A stretch of DNA of 51,643 bases from Escherichia phage egaa, in the sequence record NC_049852.1. One strand, 5' to 3'. The position numbers and the translations under genes were made by a program. A model generated the notes under the pieces. The model had not been told where the DNA came from. It saw only the letters and a list, made by a program, of their open reading frames with translations, and did not search any database. Below are positions 10,501 to 51,323 of this stretch, one piece after another (position 1 is the first letter of the stretch; every line of letters begins with the position of its first letter).

Positions 10501-10546
10501 AATTATGCCCGACACAAGGCCGGGCGTTTTAACAAAAAGTGCTATT
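10501..10546 (-). promoter_or_regulatory. conserved 20-bp element (minus orientation) + 23-nt spacer + ATAATT
   Basis: rc of 10527-10546 = aatagcactttttgttaaaa; contains TAG stop of 10542-10781; hairpin gcccggc-cttgtgt-cgggc in spacer; leader CGAAACGAA...GAGGA. Confidence 0.6.
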
Positions 10547-11520: not shown

Positions 11521-11566
11521 TATTATGGCGCAATCCTTCGCGCCTGTTTTAACAAAAAGTGCTATT
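11521..11566 (-). promoter_or_regulatory. conserved 20-bp element (minus) + 23-nt spacer + ATAATA
   Basis: rc of 11547-11566 exact 20-mer incl. TAG stop of VRR-NUC gene; hairpin ggcgc-gaaggatt-gcgcc; ATG of dam 60 nt downstream. Confidence 0.6.
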
Positions 11567-45894: not shown

Positions 45895-45940
45895 CACTTT
45901 AACAAATGCCCTCGCGGAAGTTTTAACAAAAAGTGCTATT
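45895..45940 (-). promoter_or_regulatory. conserved 20-bp element (minus orientation); -10 not clearly assignable
   Basis: rc of 45921-45940 = aatagcactttttgttaaaa overlapping the stop of 45939-46226. Confidence 0.5.
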
Positions 45941-47210: not shown

Positions 47211-47241
47211 GTTTCAAGTCCTCTCGTTGATTGGTGTTTGC

Positions 47242-47286
47242 ATTATAGCGAGGCATTGCGCCCCGCTTTTAGCAATTCGTGCTATT
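47242..47286 (-). promoter_or_regulatory. variant element AATAGCACGAATTGCTAAAA + hairpin + TATAAT
   Basis: rc of 47267-47286 incl. TAG stop of kinase gene; TATAAT = rc of 47242-47247; ATG of 46809-47210 57 nt downstream. Confidence 0.55.
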
Positions 47287-47872
47287 CAATCTTTGTGTGT
47301 TTCCACTGCACCGATTTGATGATCTCGTCAACAGTCTTTTCTGGCTCGCCATCAATCATTGTGAAGTCGTAATGCTTGACTCGTTGATGGTATCCGCTCA
47401 GGTCAATATAGTTTCGCGAATCTCCATCAAACGTGAATCCCTCGCGATGCAGTCGGCAAATGTGAACTTCATGGCCTGCCTTAACGAGCGGCTTGATTTC
47501 TTCAGGGAATCCGCCATCACTAATTACAACAGCCAAATCTCTGTACATCTCGTGTACTTGCTCAACCATGCGATTCCCAAAATATTGATCGCCAAAAGCT
47601 GGCTTCATAACTTCTTCGCTAATCCAGATCATGAATTGTCGCGGAGACTTGCCTTGCAAGATTGCTTGAGGCTTTTCTTTCTGCTCGCGGTCGTTATACA
47701 GATCAATGAACTCGTCATATCTGTAAACGCCAAGCATGGAGAATGCAATATCAAACATCGGCTGTTTAAACGACGCTTCAACCGCTGCGTAACGATGGCC
47801 CGTTAAGTATGCGGCAAGCGTATCTTTGCCAACTCCTGGCGGTCCGTTAAGGATGATAATGTCTCGTTTCAT
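47282..47872 (-). CDS. deoxynucleoside monophosphate kinase-like P-loop kinase
   Basis: Walker A ILNGPPGVGKDT; overall resemblance (recalled) to T4 gp1 dNMP kinase; in-frame ATG at codon 6 with GGAG upstream. Confidence 0.6.
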   Translation of the reverse strand: MKRDIIILNGPPGVGKDTLAAYLTGHRYAAVEASFKQPMFDIAFSMLGVYRYDEFIDLYNDREQKEKPQAILQGKSPRQFMIWISEEVMKPAFGDQYFGNRMVEQVHEMYRDLAVVISDGGFPEEIKPLVKAGHEVHICRLHREGFTFDGDSRNYIDLSGYHQRVKHYDFTMIDGEPEKTVDEIIKSVQWKHTKIE

Positions 47873-47873
47873 A

Positions 47874-48011
47874 TTAGTTGTCTCCATATCGGCTTGAATG
47901 TTTACCTGGGCGCTGTCGCTTTTTGCGATAGCGTTGATTCATCTCTTGGCGCTCGTGGTAGCTGTATCGCTTCTTTTTGGATACGATTTTTTCGAAGTTT
48001 CGCATCTTCAT
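47874..48011 (-). CDS. small highly basic protein (45 aa), not in ORF track
   Basis: Translated directly: MKMRNFEKIVSKKKRYSYHERQEMNQRYRKKRQRPGKHSSRYGDN; stop TAA abuts kinase ATG; weak RBS. Confidence 0.3.
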   Translation of the reverse strand: MKMRNFEKIVSKKKRYSYHERQEMNQRYRKKRQRPGKHSSRYGDN

Positions 48012-48066
48012 GATCTCATGTTGTTATCTCAACATAGCGCACTGCATGAATGCGCTATAGTAAGAG

Positions 48067-48252
48067 TCACCACTTAAAGCCGCTTTCATCCCGTACAATC
48101 TGGTAAAGCGCCACCCAAAACCACACAAACCAGAACATCAGAACAAGAGGCTGATCTTTATCAGTGCAATCACACTCTTTAACCAATGCGCGGAAGATGA
48201 ATAAACCTGAAATATAAAAGAAAACCACTAAAAATACAAGTAACCAAATCAT
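48067..48252 (-). CDS. small membrane protein (61 aa)
   Basis: Two hydrophobic helices (IWLLVFLVVFFYISGLFIF; LVLMFWFVWFWVALY); RBS AAGGAGtcaacaaATG; ATGA overlap. Confidence 0.6.
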   Translation of the reverse strand: MIWLLVFLVVFFYISGLFIFRALVKECDCTDKDQPLVLMFWFVWFWVALYQIVRDESGFKW

Positions 48253-48512
48253 TTGTTGACTCCTTCAATTACCAGCGTGTAAAGCAGAACTGGATTTTGC
48301 ATGTCGCTTCGGCGCGGCTCTCGTGGCGAATCTGGCCATGCGCATTTCCCGTTTGCCACAATATAACCCACCAGATCACTAAGTTTTGATATACCGTCTC
48401 GACTAATCACGTTGTATGCAACGTCTTCGCCGTCAATGGAATGGATAGCAAAGAAACTTGGCGCGCCGTCAATCTTGCCTACCGCTTTGAAAAACTCAAC
48501 TTTATTAACCAT
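48249..48512 (-). CDS. hypothetical protein (87 aa)
   Basis: ORF track; RBS aacGAGGAttaaatcATG, 57 nt downstream of element variant. Confidence 0.6.
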   Translation of the reverse strand: MVNKVEFFKAVGKIDGAPSFFAIHSIDGEDVAYNVISRDGISKLSDLVGYIVANGKCAWPDSPREPRRSDMQNPVLLYTLVIEGVNK

Positions 48513-48543
48513 GATTTAATCCTCGTTTGTTGTCGATGGGCTT

Positions 48544-48588
48544 ACTATACCGCAAGCCCGATAATCTGTTTTTGCAAAAAGTGCTACT
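48544..48588 (-). promoter_or_regulatory. variant element AGTAGCACTTTTTGCAAAAA + 22-nt spacer + TATAGT
   Basis: rc of 48569-48588 incl. TAG stop of small ORF; leader CATCGACAACAAACGAGGA conserved. Confidence 0.55.
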
Positions 48589-48745
48589 TACGAACGCAGA
48601 ATACTTCAACTTCTTTATCGTTATCTGACATATGCAAAATTACTTGCTCTCTCGCGGCCTGACATCTTGATTCACCGTGGAACTCGCGAGACTCAATTGC
48701 GGCTGAATTGTAGCTTGTGATAATCACAAATAGAATCCAGGTCAT
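48584..48745 (-). CDS. small protein (53 aa) with hydrophobic N-terminus, not in ORF track
   Basis: ATG 48745 overlapping upstream stop (ATGA) with RBS GGAGGAattgaaATG; MTWILFVIITSYNSAAIESREFHGESRCQAAREQVILHMSDNDKEVEVFCVRK. Confidence 0.5.
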   Translation of the reverse strand: MTWILFVIITSYNSAAIESREFHGESRCQAAREQVILHMSDNDKEVEVFCVRK

Positions 48746-49281
48746 TTCAATTCCTCCACGCCATGCGATTGGATATGATTATGTGGCTTGTCGTATTCCG
48801 TGACCTGATAGGTTGTGATTCCCAGGCTGCGGAAGTGATTAACCACGTTCGGCGAATCATCAAAAGCGCACACGATGTTTTCTAGGCCGATAGCGCGCAA
48901 GACTTCTTCTTTGATGATCGTGTCTTTTCGGTTGTCTTCCTTGCGTCGCATGATTAACGCGTCGTACTTGATGCCGTTTTCGTTAAGCCATTTGCAGGTG
49001 TCCTCAATCACTTCATCGCTACGTCCGGTCAGGATAACGATGGCAAATCCTGACATCCACAATCCGTTAACCACTGCAACCGTGCTCTTAATCGGCGAAT
49101 CTCCAACAGCCGCTTTGTTGAACTCAGACCAGCTTTCTGTAAGGTGTAAATCTTCTGTCGGCAGCAGATGCAAGCGATGAGTCCCATCGGATAACGTGCC
49201 GTCAAGGTCAACGACAACAATCGGCTTGCTCGTGGAAAAATGGTATTTGCTTCCCCAAAGTTCAAATTCGTATTTTTTCAT
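48742..49281 (-). CDS. HAD-family phosphatase resembling the 3'-phosphatase domain of T4 polynucleotide kinase
   Basis: VVVDLDGTL (DxDGT), ILTGRSDEV, MRRKEDNRKDTIIKEEVL, AFDDSPNVVNHF align to recalled T4 Pnk phosphatase motifs; in-frame ATG at codon 6 (track start TTG). Confidence 0.7.
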   Translation of the reverse strand: MKKYEFELWGSKYHFSTSKPIVVVDLDGTLSDGTHRLHLLPTEDLHLTESWSEFNKAAVGDSPIKSTVAVVNGLWMSGFAIVILTGRSDEVIEDTCKWLNENGIKYDALIMRRKEDNRKDTIIKEEVLRAIGLENIVCAFDDSPNVVNHFRSLGITTYQVTEYDKPHNHIQSHGVEELK

Positions 49282-49292
49282 TATCAAACCTA

Positions 49293-49514
49293 TCAATTAA
49301 AATGGATTTGCTTGTATTCGATTTCATCTGCCAGATCATTTAACTTATCCGCCAGCTTGCGCACCTGGTCAGCGGTGAGTATCGACCTAAAATCCGGTCT
49401 GCGACCACCTTCAAACGTGCCATCAATAAACACTCTATCGCCGAACTTATATACTTCAAGTGCATCGCCATGATTATCAATAAACTTGTGCTTAACGCGC
49501 TTATTTGTTTCCAT
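49293..49514 (-). CDS. hypothetical protein (73 aa)
   Basis: ORF track; RBS aaGAGGTGAaagATG. Confidence 0.6.
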   Translation of the reverse strand: METNKRVKHKFIDNHGDALEVYKFGDRVFIDGTFEGGRRPDFRSILTADQVRKLADKLNDLADEIEYKQIHFN

Positions 49515-49731
49515 CTTTCACCTCTTCAAATTCAGCAATTACCATAGCGTGCGCCATAACCTTAGTGCCTTCGCCACCGTTCAGGAACATGCGATGCCCT
49601 TTACTATTGCTCACGTAAAAAGATCCGGTTGATGATTTCAACTTTTGCGCCATATAGATTTCGCCAGGCTTGAACATGCCAGAGCAACCATAGTTAACGG
49701 AAATGCATTTCATCTTCTTGTTAATGTACAT
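49501..49731 (-). CDS. hypothetical Cys-containing protein (76 aa)
   Basis: In-frame ATG (codon 22 of track ORF 49501-49794) with RBS cgAAGGAGataaaacgATG; track start lies inside promoter element. Confidence 0.55.
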   Translation of the reverse strand: MYINKKMKCISVNYGCSGMFKPGEIYMAQKLKSSTGSFYVSNSKGHRMFLNGGEGTKVMAHAMVIAEFEEVKDGNK

Positions 49732-49760
49732 CGTTTTATCTCCTTCGTTGAAAGTGAGGC

Positions 49761-49804
49761 CATTATACTTGGCCCCACATTTGAGTTTTAACAATTCGTG
49801 CTAT
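49761..49804 (-). promoter_or_regulatory. variant element AATAGCACGAATTGTTAAAA + spacer + TATAAT
   Basis: rc of 49785-49804; TATAAT = rc of 49761-49766. Confidence 0.55.
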
Positions 49805-49872
49805 TTAATAATGCATTAGGATGTATAAAAACAGTCCTATCCAGCCTGCAATGTGCATCAACGTGTAAATGC

Positions 49873-50760
49873 TCATGCTCTAACCTTCCACTTAACCATC
49901 GTTCCGCGCTTGATGCTAATCTCACCAGCAACTGTACGGTTTTTTGCGCTACCGTAATGAAGCAGAAGAATAACAACATCATCATGAATCTCGATCGTCT
50001 TTGGTTTTGCCGTTACTTCAAACCACATACCATCATCAAGCTGAACTCCTTTTAGCGTGGCGGCAACTGGCATGTCTTCAATTGCGCCCTGCGTTACGAT
50101 TTCTTGATTTGCAAAGGCGCTCTTATCAATACGCCAGCCTCCAGGCGCTTTCATTTCAACGGCTGCCTTGTGGATCTCCTCGCCAATGATTTTTTGAATT
50201 GACGTCTTTCCGCCGCCGAATGGTGTTTCTCCAAACAAGTGTTTTGTAATGTCTTCCACGTAGTACACCTTATCTTTTTCATTGTGCGGATTGAATTTGT
50301 TGTGACCATTAACAAAGAAATCAACTTTCAACTCTGATTTCTGACCATCGCTATAAACGCCATTGTCGCGCGATGTGAACCTGATTGTTGAACCGCCACA
50401 ATGAAAAACAATCGGATACTTGATATTGTCCACACTTAAGCACCACAATTTTTTGTAGTCGCAGGTTTTCATATCTACCGTATGAATCTCTGCGCGTTCA
50501 GGCGAGCGCGCTGGTAACACCTGGCCTTTATATGGCTTGTAGTGAAAACATGTGTATCCTGGCATTGCGTAACCGTAGTCTCTGAGTGAGTTGTAGTGTT
50601 TATTGTGCGCTTCAATGAAGTGTTCAATCTCCATTGTTGAAGCGTTTGGACTTCCGTATTCGTTAAACTTAGTGCATGTCTTCTCGTCGGTAAACATGAA
50701 ATGACCAACGCCGCGAGATTCGAAGGTGATCGGGAATTTAATGTTAGCAAGTTTTAACAT
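49873..50760 (-). CDS. hypothetical early protein (295 aa)
   Basis: ORF track; RBS AAGGAGaaagtaccATG; contains FGGGKTS (not a canonical Walker A); no confident family assignment. Confidence 0.7.
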   Translation of the reverse strand: MLKLANIKFPITFESRGVGHFMFTDEKTCTKFNEYGSPNASTMEIEHFIEAHNKHYNSLRDYGYAMPGYTCFHYKPYKGQVLPARSPERAEIHTVDMKTCDYKKLWCLSVDNIKYPIVFHCGGSTIRFTSRDNGVYSDGQKSELKVDFFVNGHNKFNPHNEKDKVYYVEDITKHLFGETPFGGGKTSIQKIIGEEIHKAAVEMKAPGGWRIDKSAFANQEIVTQGAIEDMPVAATLKGVQLDDGMWFEVTAKPKTIEIHDDVVILLLHYGSAKNRTVAGEISIKRGTMVKWKVRA

Positions 50761-50814: not shown

Positions 50815-50860
50815 TATTATGCCTGGTTATCGTTTTTGAGTTTTAACAAAAAGTGCTATT
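50815..50860 (-). promoter_or_regulatory. conserved 20-bp element (minus) + 23-nt spacer + ATAATA
   Basis: rc of 50841-50860 overlapping TAA stop of 50860-51045; hairpin gggcggc-acggcgt-cgccc in leader. Confidence 0.55.
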
Positions 50861-51277: not shown

Positions 51278-51323
51278 TATTATGCCAGGTTTTGCGCCTG
51301 GCGTTTTAACAAAAAGTGCTATT
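51278..51323 (-). promoter_or_regulatory. conserved 20-bp element (minus) + hairpin spacer + ATAATA
   Basis: rc of 51304-51323 exact 20-mer; hairpin gccagg-cgcaaaa-cctggc; leader CATCGAAACGAGA...GAGGA. Confidence 0.6.

Follow-up and report, generated by a model that had tools for sequence, protein, structure and literature searches.

The 51,643-nucleotide (nt) DNA of Escherichia phage egaa, a T1-like Hanrivervirus (NC_049852.1; the whole stretch is hereafter called the window), carries in a leftward gene cluster a conserved pair of genes that we interpret, with moderate confidence, as a nucleotide-pool cassette: a gene for a HAD phosphatase, then a gene for a deoxynucleoside monophosphate (dNMP) kinase (DNK), with an unrelated modular protein of 295 amino acids (aa) encoded upstream. 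A first-pass annotation of this DNA had described the kinase, the phosphatase, and the 295-aa protein as separate minus-strand open reading frames (ORFs), and we find all three on that strand at the same coordinates, the first two 869 bp apart. Its observation is sound; its headline interpretation, that the two enzymes form a split polynucleotide kinase (Pnk) that heals broken nucleic acid ends, is not borne out, and its fallback, a possible dNMP kinase that serves nucleotide supply, is the supported one. The region is 90 to 96% identical at the DNA level to those of Hanrivervirus and other T1-like phages (among them vojen, pSf-1, JakobBernoulli, and KarlJaspers), and ORF lengths matching those of an annotated relative indicate that the cluster continues into the terminase genes.

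The assignment of the kinase is well supported through its orthologs. The protein matches PHROG 139, the "deoxynucleoside monophosphate kinase" family, with an E value of 4.6e-50, and is 46.5% identical to R1DNK of phage Rao1 (E value of 6e-58), 42% identical to Klebsiella VAC2 DNK, and 96% identical (189 of 196 residues) to the KarlJaspers DNK (QXV82329.1). Phage DNKs trigger the Kongming defense system; purified R1DNK phosphorylates dAMP, dGMP, dCMP, and dTMP, and the KarlJaspers DNK triggers Kongming toxicity (10.1101/2024.12.20.629578), the latter an indirect sign of dNMP kinase activity. The Walker A P-loop and its catalytic lysine are present, K16 aligning with the essential K15 of R1DNK. 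R1DNK residues K15, M45, R61, and L136 correspond to K16, M46, R62, and L141 of the window kinase, in which three of the four R1DNK escape-mutation positions and the catalytic lysine are identical.

Pfam and NCBIfam recognized only the P-loop in the kinase, and single-sequence and profile searches of the PDB returned nothing past P-loop matches and did not detect T4 gp1; we therefore compared the fold of an AlphaFold model, which is confident (pLDDT of 92.9 and pTM of 0.86), with solved structures. The model has a gp1-like NMP kinase fold, and no T4 Pnk or Pnkp chain was among the 60 structure matches listed for it. These comparisons point to a T4-gp1-type dNMP kinase, although one that is only 16% identical to T4 gp1 (PDB 1DEK) and shorter (196 versus 241 aa), and whose likeness to the T5 DNK is confined to the N-terminal 87 aa. 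The 196-aa protein with NGPPGVGKDT named in the first-pass annotation is the second-ATG form of a 201-aa ORF (47282-47887). This start (ATG at 47872) is the most likely one because a GGAG Shine-Dalgarno sequence precedes it and ~196 aa is the usual length in the family; it begins 1 nt past the stop of the upstream 45-aa ORF.

The phosphatase, described earlier as a 179-aa HAD protein with blocks resembling the T4 Pnk phosphatase, bears out that description. It scores 77.7 bits against PF25109 (HAD_PNKP; cut-off of 27.6) and 38.9 bits against PF03767 (class-B acid phosphatase; cut-off of 27). A search of the PDB with its family profile returned Pnkp1 (E value of 4.6e-16) and the T4 Pnk phosphatase domain (~1e-9) and no significant match to other solved families, and hhalign aligned its clade with T4-like Pnk at 98.2% probability (E value of 5.8e-14, 33% identity). 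It carries DLDGT, and its blocks LTGR, RKDTIIKEE, and FDD align with T4 Pnk residues 201 to 298. Catalytic roles in T4 Pnkp have been established for Asp165, Asp167, Ser211, Lys258, and Asp278 (PMC3592404); the counterparts D25, D27, T85, K124, and D142 are all present in the HAD protein, as are R36, R87, and D120, equivalent to T4 R176, R213, and D254. The protein belongs to the PNKP-type DxDxT clade and, judging from these alignments, is a phosphatase-only member that keeps all catalytic residues. The gene is annotated "polynucleotide kinase" or "kinase-phosphatase" in relatives, though it has no kinase domain. Curated cut-offs or significance were not reached by the kinase, the HAD protein, or the 295-aa protein in NCBIfam or PADLOC.

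The HAD protein shares the DxDxT core with the T4 Pnkp/PseT phosphatase domain and Capnocytophaga Pnkp1 (~30 to 33% identity over ~135 to 160 residues). Unlike T4 Pnkp, in which a kinase is fused, it stands alone, with a dNMP kinase gene as partner, and it has an insert of ~14 aa after the R176 equivalent that T4 Pnkp lacks. The spacing between motifs I and II is 55 aa, versus 41 in Pnk and 58 to 59 in the T5-type deoxynucleotidase Dmp considered below. H35, R36, L37, P41, W51, and N55 of this segment are invariant in the clade, and the HMMER alignment to 5UJ0 leaves the insert unpaired; its nature was judged from alignments.

Genomic linkage joins the two enzymes. Among 80 IMG/VR loci encoding DNK relatives (41 to 96% identical), a HAD gene of this clade lies within ~2.2 kb of the DNK gene in 67, and in all 67 it is upstream, on the same strand, and a separate gene; the gap is at most 150 bp in 32 of the 67. 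The four ORFs that occupy the 869-bp interval in the window each occur in only 4 to 18 of the 80 loci, and the split arrangement looks derived. In Webervirus Trimon, the pair adjoins lysis genes and shares a 4-bp overlap; in Rao1, gp57 (HAD) directly precedes gp58 (R1DNK). In the Autographiviridae Aeromonas phage Bolek (L089:1330-2346), the pair comes after genes for an exonuclease, an endonuclease, and a phosphoesterase and before the gene for the RNA polymerase; the phosphoesterase, calcineurin-like, is encoded two genes upstream of the HAD gene, which the DNK gene follows. A paper on phage KanT1 noted "polynucleotide kinase" and "dNMP kinase" genes together in Drexlerviridae and proposed that they enhance nucleotide supply (PMC13164509). 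That pair follows a DNA-repair exonuclease gene near the lysis module, whereas in the window the terminase genes are downstream of the pair, and the four small ORFs separate its members.

A kinase gene so tightly and directionally linked to that of a true PNKP-type phosphatase, whose catalytic residues are all in place, could also be half of a split Pnk. In that case the kinase would phosphorylate 5'-OH ends and its partner would strip the 3'-phosphate or 2',3'-cyclic phosphate from broken tRNA or DNA, the restored ligatable ends countering anticodon nucleases or other nucleic-acid-cutting defenses. The T4 Pnk kinase domain and NMP kinases do share the same broad P-loop fold class. We nevertheless consider this reading very unlikely. 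The kinase orthologs are biochemically dNMP kinases; tblastn of the window, with an Rnl1 fragment and the kinase domain of a T4-like Pnk as queries, gave no match, a search whose sensitivity is limited to recognizable ligases; and no ligase is annotated in the curated relative JakobBernoulli. Moreover, the host ligase RtcB requires a 3'-phosphate or cyclic phosphate end, so removing the 3'-phosphate would be counterproductive unless the phage had a ligase to match. The kinase half of the end-healing proposal is not supported, given the PHROG family, the near identity to a tested DNK, and the failure to detect a Pnk kinase domain or Rnl1 in the window, and we do not think that the HAD protein heals RNA ends for ligation. 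The first-pass annotation had itself named two outcomes that would speak against end healing, a kinase acting only on dNMPs and a phosphatase inactive on such 3' ends; the orthologs point to the first.

We propose instead that the kinase would use ATP to convert dNMPs, for example those from host DNA breakdown, to the diphosphates (dNDPs), from which host Ndk would make the triphosphates (dNTPs) for phage replication; the same kinase activity would be the trigger sensed by Kongming. The HAD protein would act on small (deoxy)nucleotide phosphomonoesters of the kinase's pool. Our best guess is that it strips 3'-phosphates from 3'-dNMPs, 3',5'-bisphosphates, or 3'-phosphate-terminated breakdown fragments, and that the dephosphorylated species could then be converted to 5'-dNMPs and rephosphorylated. 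We favor 3'-phosphomonoesters of deoxynucleotides or short fragments because the nearest characterized relatives are 3' specific and because T4 Pnkp also hydrolyzes the mononucleotide 3'-TMP (PMC3592404).

Several points weigh against this proposal. The HAD substrate is something we infer from sequence kinship, and the core of the protein is clearly closest to enzymes acting on polynucleotide ends (Pnkp1 and T4 Pnk), so it may act on nucleic acid ends. Nothing known to us in a T1-type infection would yield 3'-phosphorylated deoxynucleotides. Were the protein a 5'-dNMP phosphatase, cotranscription with a dNMP kinase would set up a futile cycle. The genes also occur apart: in the Autographiviridae Escherichia phage AV102, the HAD gene directly follows exonuclease and endonuclease genes with no adjacent DNK gene, so that, with Bolek, the HAD gene is seen with or without the kinase and sometimes beside a second phosphoesterase. 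Likewise, 13 of the 80 DNK loci (L021, L031, L044 to L047, L050, L051, L053, L079, L084, L085, and L087) have no HAD gene within flanks of up to 8 kb; the DNK family therefore exists outside the cassette as well. The count of 67 of 80 overstates the number of independent events because the loci are phylogenetically related. Finally, Rao1 lacking dnk showed no measurable loss of fitness (10.1101/2024.12.20.629578), so the supply role may be marginal in the laboratory.

A different activity for the HAD protein is suggested by its kinship with Dmp of phage T5, a deoxynucleoside-5'-monophosphatase that beats Kongming by depleting dAMP; Dmps co-occur with DNKs (10.1101/2024.12.20.629578). T5 Dmp carries DLDGT, its essential D22 being the first Asp, shares the Arg that lies 11 residues further on, and has TxR, KDxxxK, and DD motifs; no Pfam HAD model matches it. 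T5 Dmp and Vibrio VPG01 Dmp share with the window protein the DLDGT-x5-HR signature, the three later motifs, a similar spacing of motifs I and II, and the genomic association with DNK, at only ~21 to 24% identity. Profile-profile comparison of the HAD clade with Dmps gave 92.9% probability (E value of 3.6e-7 over 141 columns), and VPG01 Dmp matched the HAD protein pairwise at an E value of 1.5e-5. In a multiple alignment, however, the window clade has neither the ~30-aa insertion that Dmp carries between motifs II and III nor its C-terminal extension, and the motif II-III stretch of the clade resembles Pnk rather than Dmp. By sequence, the clade is intermediate between Pnk and Dmp. At the threshold used by the Kongming authors (E value of ≤1e-3), the Dmp hidden Markov model (HMM) does not retrieve these HAD proteins (E value of ≥0.12 at comparable database size), so the link has probably not been noted before.

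The HAD protein might then be a 5'-dNMP (dAMP/dIMP) phosphatase equivalent to T5 Dmp, its gene being retained beside DNK because it blunts dNMP-derived danger signals (such as dITP for Kongming or m6-dAMP for PUA-Cal-HAD) that would arise from the phage's own host DNA degradation and DNK. Homology to validated Dmps, the common DLDGT-x5-HR[LV] signature, the long segment between motifs I and II, and the ranking of the HAD clade above T4-like Pnk in the Dmp HMM search all agree with this, and the strict HAD-DNK linkage mirrors the reported Dmp-DNK co-occurrence. Moreover, dNMPs derived from host DNA are danger signals for at least two defense systems, one being Kongming (10.1101/2024.12.20.629578). 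We judge this reading unlikely all the same. Rao1 carries an intact HAD protein, gp57 (59% identical, with all motifs), directly upstream of R1DNK, yet it is strongly restricted by Kongming, its infection raises dAMP 2- to 3-fold, and rescue needs T5 Dmp in trans (10.1101/2024.12.20.629578), which argues against effective dAMP depletion by the HAD protein. The missing Dmp insertion and extension and the far closer relationship to the 3'-specific Pnk and Pnkp1 phosphatases point the same way. Sensitivity alone is not decisive, since Bas26 is Kongming sensitive despite a functional Dmp (10.1101/2024.12.20.629578).

A related idea, which we hold to be speculative and rather unlikely, makes the HAD protein a regulatory partner of DNK that selectively destroys a particular nucleotide from host DNA degradation (dIMP, m6-dAMP, 3'-phosphorylated nucleotides, or another signal precursor). 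T1-like and some T7-like phages with a DNK would thereby be shielded from abortive-infection systems that sense nucleotides, with Kongming outside this protection or covered only in part. If so, the HAD-DNK cassette would be a widespread offense/counterdefense unit that stands, in evolution, midway from Pnk-type end phosphatases to Dmp-type nucleotidases.

The enzyme could also be a DNA 3'-phosphatase that works independently of the kinase, cleaning 3'-phosphate-blocked ends left on phage or host DNA by nucleases, damage, or defense nucleases and so permitting priming, recombination, or 3'-5' exonuclease decay, with the DNK linkage reflecting a shared "DNA metabolism" module only. The relatives of known structure that come closest work on the 3' ends of polynucleotides, the Autographiviridae HAD genes immediately follow exonuclease and endonuclease genes with or without DNK, and in Rao1 and the Weberviruses the HAD gene lies downstream of a conserved ~377-aa gene, which may encode an exonuclease. 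Against this, HAD and DNK keep one order and strand, and frequently overlap, in three different genomic settings, a constancy that favors a closer relationship than loose membership in a module. The conserved extra insert also appears, from alignment, to sit at the cap position, and among the HAD cap classes an insert there is more typical of small-molecule enzymes. We regard an independent DNA 3'-phosphatase as improbable.

Most of these findings are already annotated in, or tested with, close relatives: the kinase is essentially known, the cassette as a pairing noted in the literature, and the HAD protein as a misannotated member of a known clade. The consequence is mainly a correction. Many T1-like records call a phosphatase-only HAD protein "polynucleotide kinase," and the neighbor labeled "ATP-binding" or "P-loop NTPase" is the dNMP kinase that Kongming exploits. 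Candidate roles of the cassette are to tune nucleotide supply, to clear 3'-phosphorylated debris, or to mask an immune signal.

The 295-aa protein, said in the first-pass annotation to have no recognizable family, indeed matched nothing in Pfam, PADLOC, or a PDB sequence search. The one NCBIfam match was far below threshold (E value of 0.055; 13.8 bits, with the cut-off at 47.6), and the sole real match was PHROG 7116, a family without an assigned function. Its N-terminal module is duplicated (residues 2 to 99 versus 108 to 205, 27% identity, E value of 2e-5) and is followed by a conserved C-terminal domain of ~75 aa with the motifs IEDMPxGA...IEVHDD...IKRGT, which also occurs alone as proteins of 66 to 80 aa. 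The family is phage only, with just 42 representatives among 1.8 billion proteins. In the structure model the modules are confident and the linkers disordered, and the viral structure matches are all uncharacterized proteins. The modeled architecture consists of an alpha/beta module in two copies and an SH3-like barrel. The protein probably functions in binding or as an adaptor. Only 17 of the 80 loci have it alongside the cassette, and we therefore treat it as an unrelated, lineage-restricted accessory gene.

Table 1. Features of the cassette region and copies of the repeated element in the window
Feature	Position	Strand	Remark
dNMP kinase (DNK), T4 gp1 / Rao1 R1DNK family, 196 aa	47282..47872	-	
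Kinase P-loop GPPGVGKDT (G10-T18)	47819..47845	-	G15/K16/D17/T18 invariant in family alignment
Standalone PNKP-type HAD phosphatase, 179 aa	48742..49281	-	from ATG 49281
HAD motif I, D25-L-D27-G-T29	49195..49209	-	predicted nucleophile and acid-base; T4 D165/D167
HAD R36	49174-49176	-	T4 R176
Conserved insert after HAD R36 (L37-G60)	49102..49173	-	L37, P41, W51, N55 invariant
HAD motifs II-IV region	48856..49029	-	alignment with T4 Pnk
HAD motif II, T85-G-R87	49021-49029	-	aligned with T4 S211/R213
HAD motif III, K119-D120...K124	48910-48927	-	aligned with T4 D254/K258
HAD motif IV, D141-D142	48856-48861	-	aligned with T4 D277/D278
Four small accessory ORFs between HAD and DNK	47874..48745	-	
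53-aa ORF	48584-48745	-	ATGA overlap with HAD stop
87-aa ORF	48249-48512	-	
61-aa ORF	48067-48252	-	two transmembrane-like segments
45-aa ORF	47874-48011	-	basic
Two small ORFs between 295-aa gene and HAD	49293..49794	-	
97-aa ORF (~76 aa from first ATG)	49501-49794	-	basic; absent from JakobBernoulli and KarlJaspers
73-aa ORF	49293-49514	-	
295-aa phage-only modular protein	49873..50760	-	
295-aa protein, repeat 1 (aa 1-105)	50446-50760	-	
295-aa protein, repeat 2 (aa 108-205)	50146-50439	-	
295-aa protein, SH3-like C-terminal barrel (aa 220-295)	49876-50103	-	
CACTTTTTGTTAAAAC element, upstream of 295-aa gene	50816-50855	-	
CACTTTTTGTTAAAAC element, before 87-aa gene	48544-48583	-	
CACTTTTTGTTAAAAC element, before gene after kinase	47242-47281	-	
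CACTTTTTGTTAAAAC element, further copies	10502-10541, 11522-11561, 45896-45935, 51279-51318	-	
CACTTTTTGTTAAAAC element, plus-strand copies	1006, 1883, 2389, 4439, 7284, 14558	+	start positions

The smaller genes around the cassette vary among relatives (Table 1). Small membrane proteins had been reported between its two genes; the 61-aa ORF fits that description, and it is the only clear case among the four ORFs. In JakobBernoulli and KarlJaspers, the 295-aa-type and 73-aa-type genes are only ~70 to 140 bp apart, without the 97-aa ORF. A sigma-70-like site (TTAAAA-18-TATAAT; 10 of 12 matches; 49791-49762) lies within the 5' end of the 97-aa ORF. About 8 of the 13 DNK loci that lack a HAD gene are on contigs of up to ~45 kb in which a conserved protein of ~335 to 400 aa precedes DNK, with an Endo VII/HNH-like gene further upstream and, in some, a FEN-like exonuclease gene too.

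Homologs of the HAD protein come in two forms, one of ~179 aa and one of ~236 aa with a C-terminal extension of ~57 aa (IKITKRARFVGSKD...FIVHDDSG...), the latter found in JakobBernoulli (L001:4748-5461). The 53-aa ORF that follows the short form in the window is unrelated to this extension, which marks a mosaic junction at the 3' end of the HAD gene. The extension is not significantly related to the C-terminal domain of the 295-aa protein (E value of 0.14). Krischvirus KFS-EC, a T4-like phage, encodes a standalone HAD protein (43% identity) whose gene overlaps the end of nrdB, with a second match elsewhere in its genome.

Promoters made of a repeated element had been proposed for the kinase and phosphatase genes. 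The repeat itself is real: the 40-nt element CACTTTTTGTTAAAAC-N18-[TC]ATA[AT]T has 17 matches in the window versus 0.93 expected, oriented with the local genes, and its exact 15-mer is present in 39 of 90 related loci. The N18 segment often holds a short GC-rich dyad, then the -10-like hexamer. What did not hold is the placement, as neither the HAD gene nor the kinase gene has a copy immediately in front of it, and the spacing from TTGTTA to the hexamer is 22 nt versus the 16 to 18 nt typical of sigma-70. The element is best described as a promoter-like, family-wide repeat. Its copies would delimit one unit with the 295-aa, 97-aa, 73-aa, HAD, and 53-aa genes, a second with the 87-aa, 61-aa, 45-aa, and DNK genes, and a third that begins after the kinase. 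A generic sigma-70 scan (promoter plus terminator) showed no enrichment (8 sites versus 10.7 expected), and a literature search with the sequence of the element found no published description.

Short GC-rich hairpins occur in gaps around the cassette genes (48012-48066 and 47211-47281, minus strand), for example TAGCGCA-N9-TGCGCTA upstream of the 45-aa ORF and GCGGGGC-N5-GCCTCGC within the element after the kinase. The "promoter" escape mutations of Rao1 do not fall within a copy of the element and so lend it no support: the gp57-gp58 gap (L088:38453-38501) holds a hairpin instead (AATGGGG...CCCCATT), and a Kongming escaper with a 13-bp deletion in that hairpin also has a coding change. Such hairpins may be attenuator or processing sites that control DNK expression.

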